Source: Deltaproteobacteria bacterium
GTDB lineage: Bacteria; Desulfobacterota; Desulfomonilia; Desulfomonilales; Desulfomonilaceae
Reading direction: 5' to 3'
DNA length: 32,000 bases
Assembly: GCA_036821825.1 (NCBI GenBank)
Contig: DAISIV010000040.1
Span: forward strand, 39 to 32,038
Shown here one piece after another: positions 4,311 through 32,000 of the stretch. The translations under genes and the position numbers were made by a program. The notes beneath the pieces were generated by a model that worked only from the letters and a program-made list of their open reading frames with translations, ran no database searches and was not told the origin of the DNA. The first letter of the stretch is position 1; each line of letters opens with the position of its first letter.

Positions 4311-5444
4311 GTGTCATCAAGCGGACCCGTTCAAAAAAAACCCGGATTTTTTGCGAAGCTCAGGATTCCCAAGAACCTGAACAAACGCAATATTATCATT
4401 TTTTCTGGTGCGATGGCACTTCTCATCGGACTTGTCGGTTATTTTGTTTATCAGTCTTCAGGGTCGAGCAGATCCAAAGCCAAGCTGAATACATCCAAAG
4501 TTGTGCGACGGGACCTCGGCGCTACAGTTCAAGCCACAGGAATAGTCAAGCCTATGGTTGGCTCTGAAGTCAAAGTGGGGGCGAGGACCCCTGGCAAGGT
4601 CATAGAATTGCCAATCAATGTTGGTCAGCAGGTCAAGGAAGGTGAGGTAATAGCGAGGCTTGAGCAGGATGACCTGGCGGCTAAAGTAAAGCTCCAGGAA
4701 GCGATCCTCGCAGAGGCCCGGGCGGAAATGGAACGGGTTGTCAAAGATATAGAACGGGAAAAGCCGCTCATCGAAAAGGGCGTTGTTTCTCAGCAAACAT
4801 TTGACAAAACGACTTCCAATTACGAAATGGCTGTTGCGCGTCATGACAAGGCCAAGGCCGAACTTTTGTATGCCAGGGCAATGCTCTCATACGCCACCAT
4901 TACAGCGCCCATAAAGGGTGTGGTAGCCTCCGTCAATACCATTCAGGGAGAAACCGTCACCACTGGCCTGAATGCCCCTACGTTCATAAAGATCATCGAT
5001 CTGGATCGCCTCGAGGTTCAGGCCTATGTCGATGAAAATGACATAGGCAAGGTCAAGGTCGGACAGGAATCTATTTTTACGGTCGCTTCACACCCGGGTG
5101 AGGATTTCAAGGGAACTGTAACTTCCATCTATCCCTCAGCCACCATACAGGACAATGTCGTCTATTACATAACAACCGTCAGCGTTGATAACTCTGAGGG
5201 GAAGCTTCGGCCCGACATGACAGCGAATGTGATCATTTTCCTGGATCAGAGGAAAGGGGCGCTTACTGTTCCAAACAGGGCGATACAGCGGGAAGGTTCT
5301 CGCAAGTTCGTTTTCCTGATGGAAAATGGCGCCATGGAGAGAAGGTACGTGAATACTGGATGGAAAGACGGTTCCTACACGGAAATTCTTGACGGCCTCA
5401 GAGAAGGCAATGTTGTGGTGGTAGGGGATATCCCCAAGAAATAG
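4311..5444 (+). CDS. HlyD/MacA-family periplasmic adaptor (membrane fusion protein) of the ABC efflux system
   Basis: 377 aa. It has an N-terminal membrane anchor (IIIFSGAMALLIGLVGYFVY) and a lipoyl-like hairpin (PGKVIELPINVGQQVKEGEVIARLE). A coiled-coil segment follows, then the second lipoyl half and beta-barrel (ITAPIKGVVASVNTIQGETV...LEVQAYVDENDIGKVKVGQ). GTG start with GAGG upstream. First gene of a 4-gene same-strand cluster. Confidence 0.85.
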   Translation: MSSSGPVQKKPGFFAKLRIPKNLNKRNIIIFSGAMALLIGLVGYFVYQSSGSSRSKAKLNTSKVVRRDLGATVQATGIVKPMVGSEVKVGARTPGKVIELPINVGQQVKEGEVIARLEQDDLAAKVKLQEAILAEARAEMERVVKDIEREKPLIEKGVVSQQTFDKTTSNYEMAVARHDKAKAELLYARAMLSYATITAPIKGVVASVNTIQGETVTTGLNAPTFIKIIDLDRLEVQAYVDENDIGKVKVGQESIFTVASHPGEDFKGTVTSIYPSATIQDNVVYYITTVSVDNSEGKLRPDMTANVIIFLDQRKGALTVPNRAIQREGSRKFVFLMENGAMERRYVNTGWKDGSYTEILDGLREGNVVVVGDIPKK

Positions 5445-5476
5445 CCTTATTGTAAGATTCTCAATGGAGTTTTAGC

Positions 5477-6175
5477 ATGATCAATGTCCAAAATCTGTCC
5501 AAAGTTTTTAACAAGGACGGGGTAGAGGTTGAAGTTCTGAAGGACATTAACCTAACGATAGAAAAGGGAGAGTTCGTCTCCATAATGGCCCCGTCCGGAA
5601 TGGGCAAGAGCACTTTTCTAAACATATTGGGCTGTCTGGACAAGCCGTCTTCCGGATCTTATACGCTGGACGGATCCCCCGTGCAGAATATGGAGGATGA
5701 CGAACTTTCCCAGGTTCGTAACAGCAAGTTGGGATATGTTTTCCAGTCATTTCACCTTCTGCCGCGTATGACAGCCTGGGAAAACGTCATACTTCCCCTG
5801 ATTTACAGCGATGATGACTCGGACATGAAAGAAAAGGCTGTTGAAGTACTTAATTCGGTAGGGCTCGGGGATCGTATCAACCATCTGCCCAGAGAACTTT
5901 CCGGGGGACAACAGCAACGCGTCGCTATTGCCAGAGCGCTTATCAACAATCCGAGAATAATTTTTGCGGACGAGCCGACAGGAAACCTGGATTCAAGTTC
6001 AAGCGCCGAAGTAATGGATATTTTTAGAACTCTCCATGCTCAGGGTAGAACACTTGTAGTGGTCACTCACGATCCTGATGTTGGGTCCCAGGCAGACCGA
6101 ATGATCGAAATGAAAGATGGCCGCATATCTTCGGATAGACCCACCAGGTCTCTTTCAGAGGAGAACGCTAAATGA
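5477..6175 (+). CDS. ABC transporter ATP-binding protein (MacB/LolD-type, stand-alone NBD)
   Basis: 232 aa. Walker A is APSGMGKST, ABC signature LSGGQQQRVAIARAL, Walker B IIFADEPTGNLD, and H-loop VVVTHD. The stop overlaps the next start (ATGA at 6172-6175), suggesting translational coupling. Confidence 0.93.
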   Translation: MINVQNLSKVFNKDGVEVEVLKDINLTIEKGEFVSIMAPSGMGKSTFLNILGCLDKPSSGSYTLDGSPVQNMEDDELSQVRNSKLGYVFQSFHLLPRMTAWENVILPLIYSDDDSDMKEKAVEVLNSVGLGDRINHLPRELSGGQQQRVAIARALINNPRIIFADEPTGNLDSSSSAEVMDIFRTLHAQGRTLVVVTHDPDVGSQADRMIEMKDGRISSDRPTRSLSEENAK

Positions 6176-7380
6176 GAATTATCAGGATGGCCTCCCAGGC
6201 GCTGCAGGCAATGAAAGACAATAAGGTTAGATCGTTTCTAATGATGCTGGGGGTCATAATAGGAGTGGCTACCCTGACGATAATAACCTCGTCTGTCATG
6301 GGGGCGCGTAGTCAGGTGATGTCGCGTGTTGAGAGGTTTGGGCTGGATCAGATAATGGTCATGGCCGGCGCAGGCCGAAAACCAGGAGTCCCCCAACCTA
6401 CCCCGACTACCCTAAAAGTAGAGGACGCCAATGCCGTCCTGTCTGAAATCTCGAACGTGAAAGATGTCACTCCTCAGATCAATCGCCGTGACATACCCAT
6501 AAAGTATCAGAACAAGAACTCCTATGCAGTAATAGTGGCGACCAACCCAAACTGGTCCGAAATATGGAACACCCAGGCAGAGAACGGTCGCTTTTTAAAC
6601 GAATCCGAGGTTGCGCGTCTCAGCAGGGTGGCTGTCATCGGACAGACCCTGGTAAATGACCTGTTTGAGGGGGAAGACCCGGTTGGTAAACAGATAAATG
6701 TTGCCAACAATCCTTTTGAGATCATTGGTGTCCTTGAAAAAAAAGGTTCATCACCGACGGGCCTGGATTTAGATTCACGCCTAATCATCCCCCTGACTAC
6801 CGGAATGAAACGTGTCTTCAATCAGGATTACATCACAAACATCAAGATTGTGGTCAATGACACCTCCCGGATGGGGGATACTGTAAATGATGTGAAAATG
6901 TTGCTTCGGGAAAGGCATAATTTGGCTCCTGGTGTAGAGGATGACTTCACCATTGTGACACCCACCCTGGTTATGGCCCTGGCTTCAAAGGTCGCTTCAA
7001 CATTCAGCATTTTTCTCATACTTGTTTCACTGGTTTCACTAGTGGTTGGAGCAGTGGTGATAGCCAACATAATGTTCATATCTGTTAATGAGAGGAAATC
7101 TGAAATAGGTATTCGAAGAGCGGTTGGAGCCACTAAAAAAGACGTATTGGCCCAATTCCTTATCGAGTCGGTTACCGTTTCCGCCTTGGGCGGTCTTATA
7201 GGGGCCGTGCTGGGCGTCATCACACTAAACCTTTTGTCCACGTTCTCCAAGATGCAATCTGGCGCTATCCTGATGCCGATAATCATTGCTATTACCTGCG
7301 CAATAATTGTGGGATTGCTGGCCGGAATCCAGCCTGCCAGAAAGGCTTCAAACCTGGACCCGATTGAAGCCCTTAAATGA
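6172..7380 (+). CDS. ABC transporter permease, MacB periplasmic-core plus FtsX domain (paralog 1)
   Basis: 402 aa. N-terminal TM helix, then a roughly 220 aa periplasmic domain. C-terminal FtsX 3-TM bundle with the conserved cytoplasmic motif ERKSEIGIRRAVGATKKDVLAQFLIES and the C-terminal PARKASNLDPIEALK. Confidence 0.9.
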   Translation: MRIIRMASQALQAMKDNKVRSFLMMLGVIIGVATLTIITSSVMGARSQVMSRVERFGLDQIMVMAGAGRKPGVPQPTPTTLKVEDANAVLSEISNVKDVTPQINRRDIPIKYQNKNSYAVIVATNPNWSEIWNTQAENGRFLNESEVARLSRVAVIGQTLVNDLFEGEDPVGKQINVANNPFEIIGVLEKKGSSPTGLDLDSRLIIPLTTGMKRVFNQDYITNIKIVVNDTSRMGDTVNDVKMLLRERHNLAPGVEDDFTIVTPTLVMALASKVASTFSIFLILVSLVSLVVGAVVIANIMFISVNERKSEIGIRRAVGATKKDVLAQFLIESVTVSALGGLIGAVLGVITLNLLSTFSKMQSGAILMPIIIAITCAIIVGLLAGIQPARKASNLDPIEALK

Positions 7381-7441
7381 ACTGGATCAGATTGACCCGG
7401 CAAGAGAATATTTTCGCACACCGTGGGGTGACATTTTATAA

Positions 7442-8665
7442 GTGATGAGGTCATTCAGAGGCATAAGTATAGCTCTCAAGTCACTGACTGCTCACAAGCT
7501 GCGCGTCGCCTTAGCCCTGCTAGCCATCATGATCGGTGTCGCCTCCGTGACTGTGATGGTCGGCATTGGCAAGGGCGCTGAGGACGAAGTTAGGCGAAAA
7601 ATCCAGGGGATGGGGACCAATCTGGTGATGGTGAGCGCTGGAATCTCCAGAAGTGTTAAGGGGCAGATTGGGCAGATTGGCCTTATGACTACTCTAACTC
7701 AGGGTGACGTTAGAACCATCCAGGAGGAGTGCCCGGACGTGGTAAGGGCTGCGCCTGCGTTTTCCAGAAAAGTTCTCGTGAAACATGAAAATATTTCATA
7801 TTCCACCAGAGTCGTGGGCTCTGTGCCCTCCTTCATGCAAATCAAGAATGTCTACATGGACCAAGGGTCCTTTTTCGACGATGATGACGTCAGACTGATG
7901 TCGACCGTCGCGGTGATAGGCCCGACCGTGGTCAGGAATCTTTTTCCGGATAAGCATCCCATAGGTGAAGGAATACGCATTGGAAAGGTGTTGTTCAAAG
8001 TCATCGGGGTAACCGCATCAAAGGGGGACTTTGGTGGTGAGGACGAAGACGATCAAATTTTCATCCCGCTTCGTACCGCAATGAATAAACTGTTCAATGT
8101 GACTTACCTTAGCCATATTTACCTGGAAGCTCGTAGCTTTGAAGAAACGTCACTGGTGCAGGCTCAGGTCAAGGCTCTACTGAGGGAACGCCATCGGTTG
8201 AGACATGATGTGGCTGACGACTTTACAATACAAAACCAGGCTGATGTTGTTGAGGCCGAAAGCTCTGTGGCCAAAACTTTCAGTCTGCTGGTTATTGCTA
8301 TAGCCTCTGTCTCGATGCTCATAGGCGGAGTGGGAATACTCGGGGTGATGCTGCTGTCGGTCAAGGAGCGGGTCTCGGAAATTGGCGTCAGAAGAGCTGT
8401 GGGCGCTCGCCGTAAAGACATATTGATTCAGTTTCTTGTGGAGTCCTCATTCCTGGGGATAATCGGAGGTCTGGCCGGAATTGCAACGGGTTTGATAGCC
8501 TCGCAGTTGTTGAAATTCCTTTCAGGAATGCCTGTGGTATTGTCGCTGAATTACATGATCGCCTCCTTGATATTTTCGGTACTGGTCGGACTGGCTTTCG
8601 GCATTTACCCGGCGTGGAAAGCCGCAGGACTGGATCCCATCCAGGCGCTTAACTCAAAGACATAA
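7442..8665 (+). CDS. ABC transporter permease, MacB periplasmic-core plus FtsX domain (paralog 2)
   Basis: 407 aa with the same architecture as the upstream gene (ERVSEIGVRRAVGARRKDILIQFLVES; PAWKAAGLDPIQAL). The start is ambiguous between GTG 7442 and ATG 7445. Confidence 0.9.
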   Translation: MMRSFRGISIALKSLTAHKLRVALALLAIMIGVASVTVMVGIGKGAEDEVRRKIQGMGTNLVMVSAGISRSVKGQIGQIGLMTTLTQGDVRTIQEECPDVVRAAPAFSRKVLVKHENISYSTRVVGSVPSFMQIKNVYMDQGSFFDDDDVRLMSTVAVIGPTVVRNLFPDKHPIGEGIRIGKVLFKVIGVTASKGDFGGEDEDDQIFIPLRTAMNKLFNVTYLSHIYLEARSFEETSLVQAQVKALLRERHRLRHDVADDFTIQNQADVVEAESSVAKTFSLLVIAIASVSMLIGGVGILGVMLLSVKERVSEIGVRRAVGARRKDILIQFLVESSFLGIIGGLAGIATGLIASQLLKFLSGMPVVLSLNYMIASLIFSVLVGLAFGIYPAWKAAGLDPIQALNSKT

Positions 8666-9786: not shown

Positions 9787-9943
9787 GGGTCAGGCAATCG
9801 GATTGCTTTATAATTCACGATGCTGTAATGTTAATGAATCTAGGTGAATACACCTTTCTTCGTTTCGGTCTTACCTGATAACAGAATTTTCTTTGTGATT
9901 CTATAAGTTGGTCAAACCCATCAAATCTGAGGAGCTTGAAACA

Positions 9944-12532
9944 ATGGATTTTATCGAACGGCTCAAGGAAATCGTAGGCCCCAGGAACATCACTGTTTCA
10001 CCGGTAGATTGTCTGGCTTATTCGAGAGACATGTCGATCCATTCTGGAACACCGCAAGCGGTTCTGTTTGTTAGTAACACCGAACAGGTCAGCCAGATAG
10101 TCAAGTTGGCCAATGAAAACAAGATTCCCGTAACAGCTAGAGGGACCGGCTCTTCAGTGACCGGGGCAGTTCTGCCAATCAAAGGCGGTTTGATACTGGA
10201 TTTCACCAGGATGAATTCTGTTCTTGAAATAAACAAGGCTGACTCTTATGCGGTTGTGGAGCCTGGTGTAATCTGCAACGCGTTGAACGCCAAGCTCGCT
10301 CCCTCCCATTTCTTTCCACCTGACCCGGGGAGCGCTGCAATAGCCACCATCGGAGGAATGATTTCAACTAATGCCAGTGGAGTAAGAGCCGCAAAATACG
10401 GAACAACCAAAAATTATGTAAAAGGACTGACCGTGGTAATGGCGGATGGTCGAATCATCAAGACCGGAGATATTGCGCCCAAGAGCACTGCAGGTTACGA
10501 CCTTACACAGTTGTTTGCCAGTTCCGAAGGCACACTGGGAATCATCACCGAGGCCACGGTAAGGATTCTCCCCATGCCCGAATATGAGGCCTTTGCAAAA
10601 GCCTCTTTCCCCGATGTCGATACAGCCGGAAAGGCTGTCGAGAAAATGTTCACGTCAGGCCTTGAACTGGCGACATGTGAAATACTGGACAACGCATGCA
10701 TACAGGTGGCCAGGGAAGCTCTGAAAATGGATATCCCGCCCGAAGTCAACTGCCAGTTGTTCATGGGGATAGACGGCCCAAAAGCCGCAGTCCAGGAACA
10801 GATAGAAAAAATCAATGAGATATGCAAATCAGTCGGTGGTATAGAAAACATCTGGTCCGACAATCCGGTCGAGAAGGCCCAGTTGTTTGCGGCACGCGGT
10901 GGACTTGTACCAGCCATGAGCCGCCTCCAACCACATCACAGGCTTGTCCCGCTTGTTGAAGATTTTGGCGTTCCAATAAGCCGAATACCTGAAACAATAG
11001 CTGAGATTCAGAAAATCGGTGACAAATATGGCTTCCCGGTGGCCACATTCGGGCATATCGGGGACGGAAACCTGCACGCCACCTTTATCATGAACCCAAC
11101 CCTGCCGGAACACTGGGAAAAAGTTAAGAATATCGCGCTCGAATTCATCGACATGACATTGCGTCTTGGAGGGACTGTTTCCGCCGAACATGGTGTTGGA
11201 ATGGCTAAAGCTCCTTACATCGGGAGACAACTCGGGGAATCTCTCAATGTCATGACGCAGATAAAGAAGGCCTTGGATCCAAACAATATTTTAAACCCGG
11301 GAAAAATGGGTTTCGAAGATTCAATCACTGATATTCTGGATGAAAACAGTTTCATTAACTATCTGAAACATCCTGATAAAATACAACACTTCAGCGAAGA
11401 AGTTGATAATGAGATACTCGCCTGCATTCAGTGTGGCTTCTGTCGGGCCGGGTGTCCTACTTTTGGAGAAACATCTCTGGAATCGCTTAACGCAAAGGGC
11501 AGGGTCACCCTTGCGTTCAATATGCTCTCAGGCAACGTGGAACCGTCCGAAGACCTTGCCAAAAGACTCTATCAGTGCATGTTGTGCCTAAACTGCAAAT
11601 TTGTCTGTCCGGCGAAAGTGAATGTTTCAGACATCATCAGAAGCGCTAGGCAAAGGTTGGTTGAGCATGGTTTCCTTCCGGAATCCTTCAAACCTGCCTT
11701 GACCTCGATGCTTGAGGCAGCCAACCCCTTGCTGGCTCCTCCAGAAAAGAGAGCTGACAGCTTCCCGGCCAATTTCAAAAAAGCCATTCCAGGAGAGACA
11801 GAAGCAATCGTTCATGTGGGTTGCGTGACAGGTTTTCAGGATGTCAAAATAATTCCGTCAATGATCGACATAATGGAGAAAACAGGCATCAAATATGGAG
11901 CGCTAGCAGAGGAAGAAACCTGCTGTGGTTATTTGGCCTACCTGGTAGGCGACATGGACACTTTCAACAAAACCATGAAAACCTATGAAGAGAAACTGGC
12001 CGCATACAAGCCGAAGAGCCTCATAACCTCTTGCGCAGGCTGCCTGAAGACTTTTAGAGACCTCTATCCCCATTACGGAGCTTCTAATGGCTATGTGGTG
12101 TCGCATATCGTAGAACTTCTGGATAAGCTTGCACAGGAAAACAAACTGAAGTTCAAGGAGGACGCCCAACCTGTGAAGGTGATTTATCATGATCCTTGTG
12201 ATATGGGACGTCACATGGGTGTTTACGAACCGCCTCGAAATGTTCTTAAGGCCATCCCCGGGGTTGAACTCCTGGAATTCCCGATGAATCGGAACCTGGC
12301 GAAATGTTGTGGTGGTGGCGGTGGCATGAAGGGTTTCGACAACGAAATGGCTTCCGATATAGGTTTCAAGAGGCTTCTCTCAGCGATTGAGCTGGGGGCT
12401 GAAATCCTCGTATCCGCATGCCCGTCATGCAAAGGGTCTTTCAATCAGGCGGCCGCCCGCGCCCGTAAAGAGAAAAAAGGCAAGATCAAGGTAATGGATA
12501 TCACGGAACTGGTTTCCAGCCGATTGGCCTAG
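9944..12532 (+). CDS. FAD-linked oxidase (GlcD/D-lactate dehydrogenase-like) fused to a 4Fe-4S dicluster plus double CCG (GlcF/HdrD-like) domain
   Basis: N-terminal FAD_binding_4-type region (PVTARGTGSSVTGAVLP, GGMISTNASGVRAAKYG) and a FAD-oxidase C-terminal domain (SAEHGVGMAKAPY). Two ferredoxin motifs follow: CIQCGFCRAGCP and CMLCLNCKFVCP. There are two CCG-type cysteine motifs (EETCCGY, AKCCGGGGG...CPSC). The track starts at TTG 9908. I prefer ATG 9944 (MDFIERLKEIVG) because GAGGAG sits 9 nt upstream. Confidence 0.88.
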   Translation: MDFIERLKEIVGPRNITVSPVDCLAYSRDMSIHSGTPQAVLFVSNTEQVSQIVKLANENKIPVTARGTGSSVTGAVLPIKGGLILDFTRMNSVLEINKADSYAVVEPGVICNALNAKLAPSHFFPPDPGSAAIATIGGMISTNASGVRAAKYGTTKNYVKGLTVVMADGRIIKTGDIAPKSTAGYDLTQLFASSEGTLGIITEATVRILPMPEYEAFAKASFPDVDTAGKAVEKMFTSGLELATCEILDNACIQVAREALKMDIPPEVNCQLFMGIDGPKAAVQEQIEKINEICKSVGGIENIWSDNPVEKAQLFAARGGLVPAMSRLQPHHRLVPLVEDFGVPISRIPETIAEIQKIGDKYGFPVATFGHIGDGNLHATFIMNPTLPEHWEKVKNIALEFIDMTLRLGGTVSAEHGVGMAKAPYIGRQLGESLNVMTQIKKALDPNNILNPGKMGFEDSITDILDENSFINYLKHPDKIQHFSEEVDNEILACIQCGFCRAGCPTFGETSLESLNAKGRVTLAFNMLSGNVEPSEDLAKRLYQCMLCLNCKFVCPAKVNVSDIIRSARQRLVEHGFLPESFKPALTSMLEAANPLLAPPEKRADSFPANFKKAIPGETEAIVHVGCVTGFQDVKIIPSMIDIMEKTGIKYGALAEEETCCGYLAYLVGDMDTFNKTMKTYEEKLAAYKPKSLITSCAGCLKTFRDLYPHYGASNGYVVSHIVELLDKLAQENKLKFKEDAQPVKVIYHDPCDMGRHMGVYEPPRNVLKAIPGVELLEFPMNRNLAKCCGGGGGMKGFDNEMASDIGFKRLLSAIELGAEILVSACPSCKGSFNQAAARARKEKKGKIKVMDITELVSSRLA

Positions 12533-12594: not shown

Positions 12595-13785
12595 TTACTC
12601 AAACCTCATGGCCTCGGCCGCATCCAGTCTGCTGGCCTTTCTGGCAGGTAGATAGCCTGAGCTTATACCTAGAATAAATCCAAAAATGACCCCTCCTACC
12701 ACACTGATCATAAACATCAAGTATGACGGTGTGGTGGCGAGGACGATCTTGAGAATCTGGACGGACACGGTCCCGACTATTATCCCTAGCAGGGCGCCTA
12801 CCAGACTTAAGGTTACCGCTTCTACGAGGAACTGATTCATGATCATGTCCTCGGTTGCGCCAACAGCCTTCCTGAGGCCTATCTCCTTGGTCCTTTCCCG
12901 CACAGCAGCCAGCATGACGTTTGTTATGCCGAGCCCTCCAAGTATAACGATTACGATGAGCGCCGCGTATAAAAAGAGCTTTACGATCAACACAGCATGC
13001 TTGATTGTCCTGATCCGTTCAGAAAAAACCCTGATCTCCATGGCTTCACTGTAACCGGGCTGATTCCTGACCAGAATTTCATGAACCTTGTGTTGCAAAT
13101 CGTCAATGACATCCCAGTTGATGGCCCGCACATAGATGTCCTTTATTTCGTACATCCCGGGAAAACGAGAACGTGCAACGGATAAGGGAATCAGTATGCT
13201 CTCCATGAACGAGGCGTCTTCAACCCCACCTATGATTCCCACTATCCTAAAATAGTGCCCACCTATAAATATCTGTTTGTTCAAAGGGTCAGGATCATCC
13301 CCCATCAAAAGCCTGATCACGGTTGAGCCGACAACACAAACATTATTTTTCCATGCCACATCGTCGTCCGTTATTCGGCGGCCTTCAGCAACCGGAATAT
13401 GAATAGTGTCAAAAAATTTCTCGTCTACCCCCAGCAGGCGGGCAGGCATTTTTTTCAGGTTGTAGCTGACCTCGTAACCACTAAATACCGCCGGCGAGAC
13501 ATGCCTGACTCCCGGTAGCTTCTGAAGATCCTCTATGTCCTTGTGGAAATATTGGCCGCCGTGCTTCTTGGGACTCTTGCTGTAATCAAAGTAGGCCTTG
13601 ATGATTGTTGCGCTTCCCAACAATTCCAGATTGTTGCCCAAATCAGATTCAACTGCTCCTCCCATGGTAAGGATGATTATGATCCCGGCGATCCCAAGGG
13701 AAATTCCTATCAAAACGCTCTTGTACCTTCTTTTGTTCCGGTATATCTGTCTTAAGGCTATCGTCGCCAAATCTGCAGTTTGCAT
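12595..13785 (-). CDS. ABC transporter permease, MacB/FtsX family (orphan, no adjacent ATPase)
   Basis: 396 aa with the same architecture as 6172-7380 and 7442-8665. Motifs: ERTKEIGLRKAVGATEDMIMNQFLVEA; C-terminal PARKASRLDAAEAMRFE. It lies 176 nt downstream of mutS on the same strand. Confidence 0.88.
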   Translation of the reverse strand: MQTADLATIALRQIYRNKRRYKSVLIGISLGIAGIIIILTMGGAVESDLGNNLELLGSATIIKAYFDYSKSPKKHGGQYFHKDIEDLQKLPGVRHVSPAVFSGYEVSYNLKKMPARLLGVDEKFFDTIHIPVAEGRRITDDDVAWKNNVCVVGSTVIRLLMGDDPDPLNKQIFIGGHYFRIVGIIGGVEDASFMESILIPLSVARSRFPGMYEIKDIYVRAINWDVIDDLQHKVHEILVRNQPGYSEAMEIRVFSERIRTIKHAVLIVKLFLYAALIVIVILGGLGITNVMLAAVRERTKEIGLRKAVGATEDMIMNQFLVEAVTLSLVGALLGIIVGTVSVQILKIVLATTPSYLMFMISVVGGVIFGFILGISSGYLPARKASRLDAAEAMRFE

Positions 13786-25748: not shown

Positions 25749-26165
25749 TTGAAACGATTTCTGATAGCATGGCTCCTGTTTGTCTTGTGCCATGCAAACG
25801 CCGATGGTTCGGGTGGTATTACACCTGAGCAGATTTATCAAACCAATCTCGACTGGCAGACAGTCATTGGCAGTTGGGAGAAACTTCCCGAAGAAAATCC
25901 CCTGGCCGAAAAACCCAACGGTTTTAAGGACCCTTCGTTCCGATCTTTGATCACCCTGAGGAAGGATGGGACCTGTAGAATTTTCAATGAAGCTTACCCC
26001 TCCGGAATCGATGGTGTTTGGTCTTACGATGACCACAGTATTTCAGTCACGCTGCCCAACAAGGTCAAGATCAATATGTACGTCTATGGGGTGAGGGGCG
26101 ATTTTATGATCACTCGTACCCCCGAAAAAAATGGTGTGGACCAGCTATGGTCGCGCGTCAAGTAA
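25749..26165 (+). CDS. Hypothetical secreted protein
   Basis: 138 aa with TTG start. Convincing signal peptide MKRFLIAWLLFVLCHANA, then a beta-rich-looking mature domain (DGTCRIFNEAYPSGIDGVWSYDDHSISVTL...MYVYGVRGDFMITR). I prefer it over the overlapping minus-strand ORF 25572-26036, whose translation looks non-protein-like. Confidence 0.55.
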   Translation: MKRFLIAWLLFVLCHANADGSGGITPEQIYQTNLDWQTVIGSWEKLPEENPLAEKPNGFKDPSFRSLITLRKDGTCRIFNEAYPSGIDGVWSYDDHSISVTLPNKVKINMYVYGVRGDFMITRTPEKNGVDQLWSRVK

Positions 26166-26334: not shown

Positions 26335-26363
26335 TTGACAATAATTGCCTTCTTGGATATACT
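26335..26363 (+). promoter_or_regulatory. Candidate sigma70 promoter of the TolC/adaptor/GT/IspH-UbiA cluster
   Basis: TTGACA (26335-26340), exact 17 nt spacer, TATACT (26358-26363). It lies about 110 nt upstream of the GTG at 26474. Confidence 0.5.
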
Positions 26364-26473
26364 TACCGCAGAAAATCAGTTTTTTCATAGTTTATAGATA
26401 ATTCAGTATTTACGATTAATTGAATTTAGCCCTTCGAGTAACTTCTTAAAGGGCTTCAGGGTATGGAACAAGC

Positions 26474-27862
26474 GTGAGCGCTTTACACCAAAGTGCAATT
26501 AATTGCAAAAGAAGCGTTGTTCTGGGGTTTCTCAGGCCAGGCATCCTGTCTCGCCCGGTGTCGCCCCTGCTAATATTGGTGACGCTGCTATCCCTGGTGT
26601 TCCTCAGTTCCAACTCCTTAGCCAATACCGGATCACAGCCCAATGATCCCTTCGGCTATTTTGATTTCCCGACATGCGTAAGATATGCGTTCGTACATTC
26701 AGAATCGCTGTTATCGAACAAACTTGATATTCAGGTTGCATCCATAGACCTCAAGGACGCTCATTCTGAATTGATGCCAACTTTCCAGTTGGTGACCCGC
26801 TACTACTTCATCAGGACGGACGACGCAAACAATCCGAATCCCTCAAAGTTTAACGTTCAGTTCCAGATGACAAACTGGAATCCTTATGAAGCGCTGATCA
26901 AGATCAGGGCAAAATCGATTTTTGTGGATTTGGCGAAACTGGCCCACTTTGACAAGATCTCCGAGAATGTCGCTCAGATGGCCAAGCTCTTTTACAGCGT
27001 CAACACACTGCAGTCGACGATTCGTGGACAAAAACAGATTCTGGCTATTCACAACAATAAGGTGAACTTCGGAAAGAGCAAATTTGATCAAGGCAATACC
27101 GATTCCTTCACCCTCCAGTCATGGACCAATTCGCTGAAGGCTCAACAACTCAAGGTCAAAAGTCTGGAGAGGGAACTGGATCAGAAGATATCGCTTCTGA
27201 AATCCCTTATGGGTTATCACCCCGATTATCACCTACCCTTGGATACCAGAGACGCGGCCAACCAGATATTGAACGGCTTCAACGGTCGCTGGATGACGTT
27301 TGCCGACATTCAGGGCCGAAACATCAAACTGAAAATGGCTGCCAAAAAGGAGCAGGCCCAGTCGGTTATGGTCACGGGCGCCTATTTGCAACTCGTGCCC
27401 AAACCTTTGTTCGTTTTCACGGATAACAAGAACACACCCAACACGACCTCAGGTGTTAACATGGCCCTCGGTTTGGATTACATCCTGTGGGACGGCTTCA
27501 AAAGGGTGAGGGATATATCCAGACAGAAATTCAAAGCCCAGCAGCTTGAAATAGACAGAAAGCAACTTTCCGAGAAACTTTACAGTGATTTCAAGAAAAT
27601 CCGTGGTGAGATCGAATCAACCGGTGAACAGTCATCTCTCTCTCGTGAACAGGCTAAACTAGCGGACCTTGCGGAAGAGAAAGCGGCTATTCTGTATAAG
27701 TCCGGAACCATGGATTACGGCGAATATTCAGATCAGAGAATAAAGACGGTCGAGGCTCATCTGAATGTTGCCAACGACCTGCAAAACAGGGTTTTTGAAC
27801 TTATTGATCTGGCTACCATGGCAGGAGGTTTAAACAAGTACAATGCCGCAATTCGATACTGA
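26474..27862 (+). CDS. TolC-family outer membrane efflux protein
   Basis: 462 aa. N-terminal hydrophobic signal region (LLILVTLLSLVFLSSNSLA). OEP-type start of the first repeat: FPTCVRYAFVHSESLLSNKLDIQVASIDLKDAHSELMPTFQLVTRY. A second repeat has long predicted helices, and the sequence ends in an aromatic residue. The GTG start is uncertain. Confidence 0.78.
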   Translation: MSALHQSAINCKRSVVLGFLRPGILSRPVSPLLILVTLLSLVFLSSNSLANTGSQPNDPFGYFDFPTCVRYAFVHSESLLSNKLDIQVASIDLKDAHSELMPTFQLVTRYYFIRTDDANNPNPSKFNVQFQMTNWNPYEALIKIRAKSIFVDLAKLAHFDKISENVAQMAKLFYSVNTLQSTIRGQKQILAIHNNKVNFGKSKFDQGNTDSFTLQSWTNSLKAQQLKVKSLERELDQKISLLKSLMGYHPDYHLPLDTRDAANQILNGFNGRWMTFADIQGRNIKLKMAAKKEQAQSVMVTGAYLQLVPKPLFVFTDNKNTPNTTSGVNMALGLDYILWDGFKRVRDISRQKFKAQQLEIDRKQLSEKLYSDFKKIRGEIESTGEQSSLSREQAKLADLAEEKAAILYKSGTMDYGEYSDQRIKTVEAHLNVANDLQNRVFELIDLATMAGGLNKYNAAIRY

Positions 27863-28940
27863 CAAGCCCAAACCAAGGGCCAAAGCCTATGGTGTGCTTC
27901 TGGCCAGTATAGTGGCGGTAGCCTCTCTGGTTTTATTGGTGGTGACGCAGGAACCCAAGAAGGCAGTATCCAGCCCTGTGCCCGCCAAGGCCGCCATCGT
28001 GCCGCAAATCGCCGACGCCAAGTCTGAGGCTGAGATAATTTTCAGAGGCAAGAGTTTTTCGGATCTACAGAGAAGAATTGTGCTTCCTTACGGAGGCGAG
28101 ATCATTAGCATAGACGCCAAGGAAGGTCAGCCGGTTACCCAGGATGCCGTCCTGGTCAAATACAAGCTCGATCGCCAGTCCATGATGCAGGTCCACCAGA
28201 TACTTTTCCCGTCGCAGGTAATCAGTCTCAAGAACGCTTTGTACGATCAACAGATCAACCTCGAAAAACTCGTCAAGGTCTCATTGCCGGTTAAACAAAT
28301 GGCCCTTGAGAGATCTGAACAGGAACTTGCGGATATTAGGTCCCTTCAATCCAAAGGGCTCGCTGAGGCAGAGGGAGTTACGAACAAGGAACGCGAGACT
28401 GACAGCTCCCGCAAGCAGGTGCTTGAGGTTCAGAAAACCATAAAACAGGCCGAAGACGGCATTCGAAAGACTGAGGAAGACCTCAAATTCATGGAAAACA
28501 AGCAAAAGCGGGATTTGGATCTGCTTGAATATCAGACCAAGCGTGTTTACAATAATTCCGATTTGCCCCTGGACGTAGCTTTCATATCTGCGCCAATCAA
28601 TGGTCAGGTGATCTGGCTTTCTCCGGAATTGAGGGTCAATAGTGAACTCAATGCTGGCTCTCCTGTTTTAACCGTGGCCACCACCCATCCAATGATCGTT
28701 AGATGCAAGGTTCACGAACTGGATTTGGTTAAACTCAAAACAGGGGACCGCGGATCTGTAACATTTGACGCCATTCCGGAAAAGAGATTCCCTTGTAAGG
28801 TTAGTCGGATTCCTTGGGTCAGCAGAAACCCGGCGCTTGAATCGCCTGCGGATTATGAGATAGAGTGTCTGCTCGACAACATGGAAGGGCGCATCAAGGA
28901 CGGCCTTACCTGTAATGTCAAGATTAGCGTGACTCAGTAG
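27843..28940 (+). CDS. HlyD-family periplasmic adaptor (membrane fusion protein)
   Basis: 365 aa. N-terminal TM anchor AYGVLLASIVAVASLVLLVV and lipoyl-like half GGEIISIDAKEGQPVTQDAVLVKY. A long charged coiled-coil (ERSEQELADIRSLQSKG...KTEEDLKFMENKQKRDL) is followed by ISAPINGQVIWLSPELRVNSELNAGSPVLTV and a beta-barrel (KLKTGDRGSVTFDAIPEKRFPCKVSRI). The start overlaps the TolC-like stop by 20 nt. Confidence 0.8.
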   Translation: MPQFDTDKPKPRAKAYGVLLASIVAVASLVLLVVTQEPKKAVSSPVPAKAAIVPQIADAKSEAEIIFRGKSFSDLQRRIVLPYGGEIISIDAKEGQPVTQDAVLVKYKLDRQSMMQVHQILFPSQVISLKNALYDQQINLEKLVKVSLPVKQMALERSEQELADIRSLQSKGLAEAEGVTNKERETDSSRKQVLEVQKTIKQAEDGIRKTEEDLKFMENKQKRDLDLLEYQTKRVYNNSDLPLDVAFISAPINGQVIWLSPELRVNSELNAGSPVLTVATTHPMIVRCKVHELDLVKLKTGDRGSVTFDAIPEKRFPCKVSRIPWVSRNPALESPADYEIECLLDNMEGRIKDGLTCNVKISVTQ

Positions 28941-29033
28941 GCTGACGACTGATTTTCCATATGGCATCGATAAGATGCCTTTATCCCTGTTTCATGGGGT
29001 AGTTCATCAAGAACAGGGGCGTAGGAAAAAGTA

Positions 29034-30194
29034 TTGTTGATTTTTGCCTTACTCATTATAACGACCGTCCTGGTCGTTTTTTTGTTGATTTTTGGCCTTT
29101 TGCGACTGTATCTGGCGGGTAGGGTTCGTCCTGAATCGGAATCCGGTCAGTCCATGCCGCTAATACAGGTTCTGGTACCCATAAAGGGTTGTTCGGAACA
29201 ACAGGAAACTGTTCTCTCATCTTTGCTGCAACAGGATTACCCATCTTACAAGGTCAGCTTCATCATTGAGGATGAGACTGACGGTTCCAGTGAATTGCTT
29301 CATAAACTGTCACGGCAATACGATCATGCCGAGGTTTTGATTTCTGGCCGGACAGAGTTGTGTGGGCAGAAGAATCATGGTTTATCCTACGCGTCAGGAA
29401 GGCTTCATCAGGACGTAGGGATCCTGGTGACCTGTGACGGCAACAGCATCGCCCAGCGAGACTGGCTCACGTCTTTGAGTCGACCTATCAGGAATGGAAG
29501 GGCCCTGGCAGTTACTACATTTCGAACATTCAATCCGCGGCCTGTCTCGGTTGCAGGTGTTTGTCAGGCAATTTACGGTTCGATGCTATCACTTCTGATA
29601 GCAATTGAACCAAAGCCCTGGGGCGGGTCTACAGCCATTAAGCGGCAATTGTTCGATCTTCTGGATGTGAGGTCTTACTGGAGTCGAACCGTAGTGGATG
29701 ACCTTGTCATGGGGAACCTGCTGATGCAGGCTGGTATTAGACCTTTCTTTTCACCTGTTAGCGTCATGGAAACACCTTTGGCCTCCCAGACTTTTGAAGG
29801 GTTTCTCTCTTTCTTGCATCGGCAGATACTTTTCCCGAAATTCACTAATCCCGGTCTTTGGCTTCTGTCAATGGTCGGACAATATTTATTGGCTTCTGCG
29901 ACGGCAGTGGCCCTGCTAGTGTTTTTGTCATCGCTCCTGACTTTTTCCTTTGGGTTAGAGTCATTTGCGGCGTTTATTTGTCTCGTCACCCTGACCGGAG
30001 CTTTTGTTGTTCTTCACCAAATCAGTCCTCACAGGATTTCCCTTTTCTACTGGCTGGTTTCCGTCCTTCCTTTCATTGCCCTGGCTACATATGTCTATGT
30101 CCGGTCATTATTCGTTAATTACATCGATTGGAGTGGTAAGCGTTATTACTGTGGTCGTCTAGGGGTGGTAACAAAATTTGAATCCCTGCCATAA
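29034..30194 (+). CDS. Membrane glycosyltransferase, GT2/GT21-like (ceramide glucosyltransferase/HpnI-like)
   Basis: 386 aa. N-terminal TM helix, then IQVLVPIKGCSEQQETVLSSLLQQDYPSYKVSFIIEDETDGS, GQKNHGLSYASG...ILVTCDGNS, WGGSTAIKRQLF and VVDDLVMGNLL. Three to four TM helices sit at the C-terminus. TTG start. Confidence 0.75.
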   Translation: MLIFALLIITTVLVVFLLIFGLLRLYLAGRVRPESESGQSMPLIQVLVPIKGCSEQQETVLSSLLQQDYPSYKVSFIIEDETDGSSELLHKLSRQYDHAEVLISGRTELCGQKNHGLSYASGRLHQDVGILVTCDGNSIAQRDWLTSLSRPIRNGRALAVTTFRTFNPRPVSVAGVCQAIYGSMLSLLIAIEPKPWGGSTAIKRQLFDLLDVRSYWSRTVVDDLVMGNLLMQAGIRPFFSPVSVMETPLASQTFEGFLSFLHRQILFPKFTNPGLWLLSMVGQYLLASATAVALLVFLSSLLTFSFGLESFAAFICLVTLTGAFVVLHQISPHRISLFYWLVSVLPFIALATYVYVRSLFVNYIDWSGKRYYCGRLGVVTKFESLP

Positions 30195-30251
30195 AACTAA
30201 TACTTTCCGCTCCTGTTGTTGCGGTCAAGCCTTTGGCTCGGTGCTCCGAAC

Positions 30252-32000
30252 ATGAAAATTCGATTGGCCAGGACAGCCGGATTTTGCATGGGGGTCAGGC
30301 GGGCAGTGGAGATGGCGCTTGATCTTCAGAGAGAAGCGCAGGTTCAACCAATCGTCACCTATGGTCCACTTATCCATAATCCCCAGACCCTGAAGTTACT
30401 GGCCTCAAAGGGAATCTGTCAGGTCAATTCTATTGAGGAAATTCAGGGAGGAACTGTCATAATAAGGGCTCATGGAATATCTCCCCAGGAAAAGGAGCTG
30501 CTAGAGTCAAAGGGAGTTTCAATTATTGACGCCACCTGTCCGAGGGTTTCCCAGGTTCAGGCATTTATTCGCAAGCATGCGGGTATGGGCCATTTTTGCG
30601 TGATTGTTGGGGACGAGGATCATCCGGAAGTTATGGGGCTCAGGGGCTTTGCATCAGCCGGATCTTTGGTGATTTCAGGTCCCGAAATGTCGGACCTCAT
30701 CAATTCCGTTCCTCTTGACAGAACAGTTTGCGTGGTAGCTCAAACCACCCAGGAACCCAGAACTCTCCAGGCTGTAGTGGGAGCGCTCGAATCGGTGGGC
30801 GCAAAAATCAAGGTTTACAACACTATTTGTGATTCTACCAGGAAGAGACAGGCTGAAGTAGAGCAATTGGCCTTAGAGGCCGATATGGTCATAGTTGTTG
30901 GCGGAAAGGGATCTGGAAACACTCAGCGTTTAGCAAAGGTGGCCTCGGATCGCGGGAAGCCGGTGATGCATATTGAAACCGACGAGGAGTTCAGTTCCTT
31001 GGACCTGGAAGGGCTGGAAACAGTCGGCGTTACCGCTGGCGCCAGCACACCCAACTGGCAGATAAGGCAGGTCATAGAGAAATTAAAGCACATAGACATG
31101 GCTAGTCGTGGGGACTGGCTGTCACGGCTCAGAAGGTACGGGGACATCTCCGTCATGATATACGGCTGGGCGGCCCTGGCAGGGGCGGGTTTAACGGTTG
31201 CCTCCCAGACCCTTTTGTCTGAACCTTTGACCTGGATGTCTCCTGCTGTTTCTGCGCTGTTTGTATTCTCAATGCATCTGCTAAATCGATTACAGGAACG
31301 AACCGGCGCTGTCCGATTCAATACTCCCGAGATCGCGTCGTTCTACATAAGACATGAGGTTGCCCTGACCATCATCGGGTCTATTTCGGGCCTCATGGCC
31401 ATTGCGCTGTGTTTCAGTGTAAGCTTTGTATCAGGAATGACCCTAACCTTGATGACCGTAACAGGATTGCTCTATTCGCTGCCCGCAGCGAGGCTCCTAA
31501 GGTTCCCATTTACACACTGGCGCTCACTAAAAGACCTGCCCGGGGCAAAAACACCGCTGGTTGCTACCGGCTGGGCCATGGTAGCAGTTGTTGTTCCTCT
31601 ACTAGACTTCGATTATCACCCGGGAATTTTAAGCCTCCTGGTCACCTTCTCCTTTGCTTTTGGACTTGTCTTCTGGAGAACAGCCTTGTCTGACCTTCTT
31701 GACATACAGGGTGACCGAATAGTCGGGAGAGAGACCATACCCATCCTGCTCGGAGTCGAGAATACGAGAAAACTCCTGAACCGGATTCTCTTATTGTTAG
31801 GGCTCCTGCTACTGTTGTCGGGACTTACCGGCCTAACCTCGGCTGTTTCCTTTTGTCTGATGCTCAGCCTTGCATACAATTATGCCCTCTTCAGGATTCT
31901 TCTGAAAAAGAATCTTGTGGACAGGCTGTTCCTTGAGGCGGTCACTGATATCAATTTTATTTTTGCCGGTTTTCTTTCGGTAGCTTACATGTTATGGTGA
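30252..32000 (+). CDS. ispH: 4-hydroxy-3-methylbut-2-enyl diphosphate reductase (IspH/LytB) fused to a C-terminal UbiA-like polytopic membrane domain
   Basis: The IspH part (about 30252-31090) begins MKIRLARTAGFCMGVRRAV (Cys1) and continues IIDATCPRVSQV (Cys2), VGDEDHPEVMG and YNTICDSTRKRQ (Cys3), then VVGGKGSGNTQRL and GASTPNW. The C-terminal part (about 31110-31997) has 8-9 predicted TM helices. It carries a UbiA-type second Asp-rich motif DLLDIQGDRIVGRETIPILLG (31692-31715 onward) and LKDLPGAKTPLVATGWA. The track starts at TTG 30216. I prefer ATG 30252 by comparison with usual IspH N-termini. The stop codon is the last 3 nt of the window. Confidence 0.85.
   Translation: MKIRLARTAGFCMGVRRAVEMALDLQREAQVQPIVTYGPLIHNPQTLKLLASKGICQVNSIEEIQGGTVIIRAHGISPQEKELLESKGVSIIDATCPRVSQVQAFIRKHAGMGHFCVIVGDEDHPEVMGLRGFASAGSLVISGPEMSDLINSVPLDRTVCVVAQTTQEPRTLQAVVGALESVGAKIKVYNTICDSTRKRQAEVEQLALEADMVIVVGGKGSGNTQRLAKVASDRGKPVMHIETDEEFSSLDLEGLETVGVTAGASTPNWQIRQVIEKLKHIDMASRGDWLSRLRRYGDISVMIYGWAALAGAGLTVASQTLLSEPLTWMSPAVSALFVFSMHLLNRLQERTGAVRFNTPEIASFYIRHEVALTIIGSISGLMAIALCFSVSFVSGMTLTLMTVTGLLYSLPAARLLRFPFTHWRSLKDLPGAKTPLVATGWAMVAVVVPLLDFDYHPGILSLLVTFSFAFGLVFWRTALSDLLDIQGDRIVGRETIPILLGVENTRKLLNRILLLLGLLLLLSGLTGLTSAVSFCLMLSLAYNYALFRILLKKNLVDRLFLEAVTDINFIFAGFLSVAYMLW

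Follow-up and report, generated by a model that had tools for sequence, protein, structure and literature searches.

A pump-less outer-membrane factor and adaptor gene pair associated with predicted lipid glycosyltransferases in the Desulfomonilaceae, and its contiguity with an IspH-UbiA fusion gene

What connects a TolC-like outer-membrane factor, a periplasmic adaptor, a membrane glycosyltransferase and an IspH-UbiA fusion protein, when their genes follow one another on one strand and no inner-membrane pump is encoded among them? The question is raised by a stretch of 32,000 nucleotides from a Deltaproteobacteria bacterium of the family Desulfomonilaceae (assembly GCA_036821825.1, contig DAISIV010000040.1), referred to here as the window, in which four plus-strand open reading frames (ORFs) spanning 26474-32000 encode, in order, the outer-membrane factor (outer-membrane protein, OMP), the adaptor (membrane fusion protein, MFP), the glycosyltransferase (GT) and the fusion. 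A preliminary description, made from the DNA letters, had read all four as one export-plus-synthesis module. The comparison with related genomes reported here leads to a different arrangement, in which an envelope locus related to glycolipids, its energiser being encoded in trans, lies beside a housekeeping IspH gene as a separable unit, the two standing next to each other in this lineage alone; we regard this as the best reading and give it somewhat less than an even chance. The pump-less OMP-adaptor pair associated with lipid GTs is in itself real, specific to the Desulfomonilaceae and, as far as our searches show, undescribed. All four genes encode members of known families, and the most striking of these proteins, the IspH-UbiA fusion, has already been published. 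The features of the locus are as follows.

26335..26363, plus strand: sigma-70-type promoter TTGACA-17-TATACT, read directly (11/12 match in the region scan)
26364..26473, plus strand: 5′ leader (about 110 nt) that contains a small hairpin, GCCCTT...AAGGGC (conserved blocks, RNAalifold)
26474..27862, plus strand: TolC-like outer-membrane factor (OMP), 462 aa (Pfam OEP)
27843..28940, plus strand: HlyD/EmrA/MacA-class periplasmic adaptor (MFP), 365 aa (Pfam HlyD_3, HlyD_D23)
29034..30194, plus strand: GT21 ceramide-glucosyltransferase-like integral-membrane GT, 386 aa (profile alignment, AF2 model)
30252..31106, plus strand: IspH (LytB) domain of the fusion (TIGR00216, Foldseek)
31119..32000, plus strand: UbiA-like polytopic membrane domain of the fusion (Pfam UbiA, Foldseek)

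The first two genes encode recognizable exporter components. The OMP matches Pfam OEP in two repeats (1.3e-16, 61 bits against a cutoff of 22), and its single hydrophobic segment, located at the N-terminus (residues 23-51), is read as a signal peptide; a sequence search of the PDB returned no match for it, and its relatives in the Desulfomonilaceae are 44-85% identical. The adaptor matches Pfam HlyD_3 (1.8e-8, 35.5 bits against a cutoff of 22.2) and also HlyD_D23, contains one N-terminal transmembrane (TM) anchor (residues 13-38) and, judging from its length, probably lacks a membrane-proximal domain. Its family profile matches HlyD among solved structures (8dck_C, 2e-6), followed by EmrA, MacA and LipC, and NCBIfam returns weak matches to EmrA, HlyD, DevB and MacA, all far under the respective cutoffs. 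The adaptor family appears confined to the Desulfomonilaceae, within which members are 43-84% identical. The MFP gene overlaps the OMP gene by 20 nt in the window and the overlap is 17-20 nt across the loci read; the two genes are translationally coupled and form one unit.

The absence of an inner-membrane pump, pointed out in the preliminary description, is borne out: next to the OMP-MFP pair, neither the window cluster nor the sequence that extends it shows an ABC, RND or MFS gene, and the same holds for the related loci with identified neighbours. The extension is provided by L089, a 99%-identical, 295-kb metagenomic contig with proteins 97-100% identical to those of the window, which continues beyond the window end and carries, past the fusion gene, tRNA-Thr, -Tyr, -Gly and -Thr, tuf, tRNA-Trp, secE, nusG, rplKAJL and rpoB; the nearest sister clade (fusion identity 72-74%) has the same downstream order. 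With these genes downstream, the idea that a canonical pump follows immediately does not apply. A gene for a MacB-type permease in locus L115, about 8 kb from the OMP-MFP pair, is the closest transporter gene seen.

The pair is accompanied by GT genes. A GT21 gene lies on the same strand at most 1.2 kb downstream of the adaptor gene in 40 of 45 informative Desulfomonilaceae loci, and the trio is kept in at least four upstream contexts, namely GlgA-RecD2 followed by two hypothetical genes, RecO, AMP-ligase-HDAC and kinase-regulator. Furthermore, a gene for a GT of the MJ1255/VC2487 family (Pfam Glyco_trans_1_3, hereafter GT1_3) is located directly upstream of the OMP gene in five loci (L095, L103, L106, L116 and L117) and is also found beside GT21 in L115; it is absent from the window. 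Homologues of GT1_3 (38-42% identity) adjoin distant homologues of GT21 (29-31% identity) in L086 (6827-7696) and L088 (6821-7762), and in both loci the distant GT21 lies in a glycan/lipid cluster with no OMP or MFP nearby. This arrangement suggests that GT21 and GT1_3 constitute a conserved two-GT pathway, and since the two are partners elsewhere, the OMP-adaptor pair is bracketed by two partner GTs in the five loci. The connection with GTs drawn in the preliminary description thus stands, with GT21 downstream and, in the five loci, GT1_3 upstream, although the downstream enzyme is not a polymer synthase of the Alg8 or BcsA kind.

The nature of this enzyme has been examined by profile and structure comparison. 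The GT matches Pfam GT2 at 4.9e-9 and also GT21, and its homologues carry PF13506. When a GT family profile built from 42 members is compared with solved structures, ceramide glucosyltransferase (26qf_A) aligns over the full length and at low identity (residues 6-381 against 15-390; E 8e-26). Conservation covers D135, D222/D223 and R263. The Asp positions that correspond to human D144 and D236 are invariant, as is the first Arg of the (Q/R)xxRW motif, in which LF takes the place of RW (R263-Q-I-L-F). The AlphaFold2 (AF2) model, with a pLDDT of 94, begins with a single TM helix at the N-terminus, followed by a GT-A domain and then by three to four helices at the C-terminus. The protein has the same N-terminal TM helix, GT-A domain, C-terminal TM bundle, catalytic Asp and first Arg as ceramide glucosyltransferase and the GT21 family (26qf and others), and differs from them by its low identity and by LF instead of RW. 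In a Foldseek search, for which the PDB copy was an older one without the ceramide glucosyltransferase entries, the nearest structures were hyaluronan synthase (HAS), a Pyrobaculum membrane mannosyltransferase and BcsA (TM-score 0.56-0.69); the fold class is common with channel-forming synthases, and the GT protein is smaller. No PilZ or other c-di-GMP-binding Pfam domain was found on the GT or the MFP.

The full-length match to ceramide glucosyltransferase, the missing RW and the approximately four TM helices together point to a lipid GT and not a polymer synthase, and on sequence grounds we classify the protein as a predicted lipid glycosyltransferase of the ceramide-glucosyltransferase type. 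Its best-supported activity would be to attach a single sugar, on the cytoplasmic side, to a lipid of the membrane, as follows from what is established for the GT21 family. Bacterial members of GT21 include HpnI and the Agrobacterium processive glycosyl-diacylglycerol synthase. Assignment of the GT to HpnI and the hopanoid pathway was rejected, as its score with TIGR03472 is 61.4 bits, the cutoff being 310, and the window contains neither shc nor hpn genes. A polymer synthase of the Alg8/BcsA type was likewise rejected on the basis of the motif, the size and the closest solved homologue. Searches of the literature on Desulfomonile glycolipids and on bacterial "glycosyltransferase family 21" returned nothing relevant, and a preprint on hopanoid transport mentions neither TolC nor HlyD.

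In the reading that we prefer, the OMP and the adaptor would form the outer-membrane and periplasmic parts of an envelope-spanning exporter of the HlyD/EmrA/MacA class. Their energised inner-membrane partner would act in trans, because no pump is encoded beside the pair in the loci with identified neighbours; an in-trans transporter is also favoured by the energy cost of flipping and extracting a lipid of the cytoplasmic leaflet. The GT21 would add a sugar to a membrane lipid acceptor at the cytoplasmic face, in some relatives together with the MJ1255/VC2487-family GT. From gene neighbourhood, the repeated occurrence of these two GTs on either side of the OMP-adaptor pair suggests that the pair serves a glycolipid or a related envelope glycoconjugate and not drugs. 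A candidate for the in-trans pump is a MacB-type ABC system, such as that encoded within the window at 4311-8665 (plus strand). As the preliminary description had noticed, this operon has a pump and an adaptor and lacks an outer-membrane factor: it is MacAB-like and encodes a MacA-like adaptor, a separate ATPase and two MacB-type permeases. Since it has its own adaptor, its pairing with the OMP-adaptor genes is a candidate only. A third, orphan MacB-type permease gene is found at 12595-13785 (minus strand), just downstream of mutS.

The concept of a GT-made glycolipid that is exported through an adaptor and a TolC-like channel is the same as in DevBCA-HgdD, the heterocyst glycolipid exporter. 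The likeness to DevBCA-TolC that had been suggested for the window does not extend to the proteins, however, as neither DevC nor DevA is encoded beside the adaptor, and the ABC operon of the window is MacAB-like and not Dev-like. A DevB identity of the adaptor was rejected, with TIGR02971 at 39.3 bits against a cutoff of 129 and with no adjacent permease or ATPase gene. If the OMP-adaptor pair does serve the GT21 product, it would give an anaerobic lineage of the Desulfobacterota a route for delivering a glycolipid to the outer membrane or past it, and it would broaden the recently recognised glycosyltransferase-adaptor-TolC class. Gene neighbourhood makes the link of the OMP-adaptor-GT trio to glycolipid export plausible.

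Several observations weigh against this link, and most of them also favour another explanation, in which the OMP and the adaptor are the outer half of an ordinary efflux or type I secretion system whose pump is encoded elsewhere, as with Escherichia coli TolC, and GT21 and the IspH-UbiA fusion are unrelated neighbours on a conserved backbone or are transcribed by read-through. Across much of the family, synteny reaches unrelated genes (GlgA, RecD2, two hypothetical genes, ftsH, the MocA-like gene described below and tuf), and adjacency alone is therefore weak evidence of a common function. Five of the 45 loci carry the OMP-MFP pair without an adjacent same-strand GT: L104 has the order OMP-MFP-FtsH, L102 has unrelated neighbours, the GT21 gene of L115 lies 3 kb off in inverted orientation, and the short sequence at hand for L126 and L132 contains no GT. 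The gap between the MFP and GT genes is long and variable (88-751 nt across loci), so co-transcription is not assured. GT21 is far less conserved than the adaptor (34-59% against 43-84% identity) and evolves faster than its neighbours, its distant homologues are never found beside an OMP or an adaptor, and the MFP itself resembles HlyD, EmrA and MacA. The families of the outer-membrane factor and the adaptor are indeed those of MacAB-TolC, EmrAB-TolC and HlyBD-TolC; in these systems, however, the adaptor is encoded with its pump and the outer-membrane factor may be elsewhere, whereas in the window the adaptor is encoded with the outer-membrane factor and the pump is missing. The absence of a pump in cis from loci with identified neighbours is unusual for adaptor genes. 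This absence, the persistence of the trio in several flanking contexts and the placement of the partner GT1_3, which flanks the far end of the pair in five loci and adjoins GT21 in L115, speak against the ordinary-efflux explanation, which we consider rather unlikely, if still the foremost of the alternatives.

A further alternative is that the OMP, the adaptor and GT21 form a self-sufficient tripartite system of the synthase type, in which the GT is itself the inner-membrane partner of the adaptor and its product is passed directly into the adaptor-OMP duct. Precedents exist in BgsA/BgsB/TolC, a synthase-adaptor-TolC tripartite polysaccharide system (PMC13438883), and in XcsAB-TolC, a polysaccharide system of the same composition (Maeda et al., 2018, as cited in PMC12430437). 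In common with the window, these systems have a membrane GT of the GT-A type, whose gene adjoins that of a HlyD-like adaptor and which cooperates with a TolC-like channel, and they lack an ABC, RND or MFS pump; their GTs are large processive GT2 enzymes with QxxRW, many TM helices and a c-di-GMP-binding domain, whereas the GT of the window is a small GT21 without these features. Given these two precedents, the broad principle of combining a GT with an adaptor and TolC is already described, although the preliminary description did not recognise the gene combination as a known system; the pump-less pair itself is undescribed as far as our searches show.

The synthase-type arrangement would agree with the lack of a transporter beside the pair in the related loci examined, with the fold relationship of the GT to the channel-forming HAS and BcsA, and with the architecture of the adaptor, in which one TM anchor and the presumed absence of a membrane-proximal domain suit a partner without a large periplasmic domain. 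Against it stand the full-length homology of the GT to a non-processive ceramide glucosyltransferase, the loss of RW from (Q/R)xxRW, the small number of TM helices, the absence of a PilZ/c-di-GMP module, the need of an energy source for the export of a lipid from the cytoplasmic leaflet, and the existence of loci with OMP-MFP and no adjacent GT. We consider this arrangement quite improbable. A lipid GT that binds the HlyD-like adaptor directly and delivers a glycolipid to the TolC-like duct would make up a new kind of envelope system, and we likewise regard it as a long shot; if it were true, the synthase-adaptor-TolC principle would be extended from polysaccharides to lipids.

The fourth gene has to be considered separately. 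The fusion of IspH to a UbiA-like fold, as recognised in the preliminary description, is confirmed by TIGR00216 and Pfam UbiA, both above their cutoffs. Counted from the ATG codon, the protein consists of 582 aa, with IspH at residues 1-285 and the UbiA-like domain at 300-582; the Pfam matches are LYTB (7e-85, residues 15-291) and UbiA (1e-9, residues 320-564). The IspH domain scores 276.8 bits with TIGR00216 against a cutoff of 187.85, its cluster-binding C96 and C193 and its catalytic H42, H124 and E126 are all invariant, with the first Cys in a conserved N-terminal FCMGV; Foldseek gives a TM-score of 0.86 to E. coli IspH, and identity to Aquifex IspH is 40%. The UbiA domain scores 38.5 bits with Pfam UbiA against a cutoff of 34.2 and matches the fold of AfUbiA and ApUbiA by Foldseek (TM-score 0.62-0.69). 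Its second Asp motif (D481-x2-D484-x3-D488) is invariant, and the first one is degenerate (N345-R-x2-[E/D]-x2-G-A), with two of three acidic positions lost. Such IspH-UbiA hybrids have been published as "Rosetta stone" fusions (Rao, O'Dowd, Li, Wang and Oldfield, 2015, Chem Sci; PMC4746011), with 47 sequences in sulfate reducers, UbiA function unknown and full-length expression reported to have failed (PMC4746011). The window protein has the same N-terminal IspH, the same C-terminal UbiA-like domain of about nine helices, a similar length of about 580 aa and an origin in the Desulfobacterota; nothing essential differs, and it is a member of that family.

More than 120 full-length homologues of the fusion were found by protein search, all with PF02401 and PF01040 and most annotated simply as IspH; exact-sequence look-ups of the window protein gave no match with either of its candidate start codons. 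A scan for the fusion with one genome per species yielded 80 loci. In 63 of 63 loci outside the Desulfomonilaceae (Syntrophales, Desulfobacterales, Desulfatiglandales and allies; 38-44% identity), tblastn found no OMP, adaptor or GT21 within 10 kb of the fusion. Clustering of the neighbours in these loci (L023-L085, e.g., L034, L053 and L073) gives the order xseA, ispA (polyprenyl synthetase), dxs, a tlyA-like gene (FtsJ/S4 methyltransferase) and the fusion, followed by a gene for a 199-aa protein with no Pfam match, tmk, holB, PSP1 and metG; the order xseA-ispA-dxs-tlyA-fusion-tmk-holB is a core isoprenoid and housekeeping operon. Within the Desulfomonilaceae, 58 non-identical loci were compared; upstream of the fusion, the following arrangements are found, in 36 loci altogether.

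OMP-adaptor-GT21-(variable)-FtsH-MocA/YgfJ-like-fusion: 20 loci
GT21-MocA-like-fusion: 8 loci
GT21 directly before the fusion (window and closest relatives): 5 loci
FtsH-MocA-like-fusion, trio absent upstream (D. tiedjei DSM 6799 among them): 3 loci

The OMP-adaptor-GT21 order recurs, but direct adjacency of the GT to the fusion is confined to the clade of the window, with ftsH and/or a MocA-like gene in between in 28 of the 36 loci. No homologue of ftsH or of the MocA-like gene was found in the window. Since two unrelated housekeeping genes have been lost from this position or relocated, the contiguity of the four genes is a derived state. The proposal that the fusion belongs to an export-plus-synthesis module is not supported, the fusion being found across the Desulfobacterota and, in the loci outside the Desulfomonilaceae, without the trio. 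We infer that the fusion supplies the last enzyme of the MEP pathway as a housekeeping function, with its divergent UbiA-like domain tethering IspH to the membrane. Its contexts (the ispA-dxs operon elsewhere and the ftsH-mocA-like-fusion-tuf order in the Desulfomonilaceae) point to core isoprenoid metabolism and not to the cluster. The main value of the present analysis as it stands is therefore corrective, in that IspH-UbiA is a known and widely distributed housekeeping fusion; added here to the family of Rao et al. are the genomic contexts (ispA-dxs-tlyA and FtsH-MocA-fusion-tuf) and the degeneracy of the first Asp motif in this clade.

The notion that all four genes are one module, in which a prenyl anchor is provided and attached by the fusion, glycosylated by the GT and exported as a prenyl-glycolipid through the adaptor-OMP pair, can draw on the single strand, the one strong promoter in this clade, the absence of terminators between the genes and the co-linearity of trio and fusion in 33 of the 36 Desulfomonilaceae fusion loci (including a RecO...MBL context without tuf downstream), but is very improbable given the much greater age and wider spread of the fusion compared with the trio, its place in an ispA-dxs operon in other orders, the FtsH and MocA-like genes that normally intervene, the three loci, D. 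tiedjei DSM 6799 among them, with FtsH-MocA-fusion and no trio, and the degenerate first Asp motif of the UbiA domain.

In loci outside the clade of the window that cover the position (L014 3654-4271, L016 9378-10004, L004 9335-9976 and others), the MocA/YgfJ-like gene usually overlaps or nearly abuts the start of the fusion gene, which suggests translational coupling of two seemingly unrelated genes. A reading of this gene as "NTP_transf_3/IspD-like", and hence as a MEP-pathway partner of the fusion, was rejected, the gene being MocA/YgfJ-like. The inserts between GT21 and ftsH include an opposite-strand radical-SAM gene, a C5-methylase and HNH pair, and a type I-E CRISPR-Cas locus. The latter lies 3′ of GT21 in L103 (7857-14860) and encodes a Cas5 with a C-terminal HNH nuclease domain (408 aa; Cas_Cas5d and HNH), and an insert in L017 (6370-8930), situated between ftsH and the MocA-like gene, encodes a C5-cytosine DNA methylase together with an HNH endonuclease. 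A single Desulfomonilaceae sublineage (L128, L127, L129 and L021) has the OMP-adaptor-GT21-FtsH-MocA-fusion block flanked upstream by recO, and downstream a gene of the metallo-beta-lactamase (MBL) fold and a carboxyltransferase gene replace tuf, so that the six-gene block persists in a different setting.

Within the window, the ORFs and their Pfam and NCBIfam domains agree with the earlier account of four same-strand genes with tight spacing. The gap from the MFP gene to the GT gene is 93 nt. The fusion gene has two candidate starts, 30216 (TTG) and 30252 (ATG), the latter leaving a gap of 57 nt after the GT gene; the ATG is supported by the homologues, all of which begin with MKIRLA. The database gene call for the fusion of a near-identical contig starts further downstream (570 aa). 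The stop codon of the fusion is the last codon of the window. A scan of the sequence found no terminator-like hairpin in either intergenic gap of the cluster.

The promoter had also been singled out correctly: TTGACA-17-TATACT is present and is the sole 11/12 match in the scan of the region. Both hexamers and the upstream AAAACTTCG stretch are invariant in five sequences (the window and four relatives), and the surrounding DNA has diverged; on sequence comparison, this conservation has the character of a phylogenetic footprint. The leader at 26364-26473 contains blocks that are invariant among relatives and a hairpin in which, according to RNAalifold, two pairs are kept through changes on both sides. 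It gave no match to Rfam at E<=1 and may have a regulatory role.

Upstream of the OMP gene lies a divergent pair of genes for small secreted proteins, neither of which has a Pfam or NCBIfam match: 24745-25287 (minus strand) encodes a Gly/Pro/Ala/Cys-rich protein of 180 aa, and 25749-26165 (plus strand) a protein of 138 aa with a signal peptide. Both are found upstream of the OMP gene in many Desulfomonilaceae loci, at 46-98% identity. Elsewhere in the window, 9908-12532 (plus strand) encodes an 874-aa fusion of an FAD-linked oxidase (GlcD/D-lactate dehydrogenase-like) with a 4Fe-4S dicluster domain and two CCG (HdrD-like) domains.

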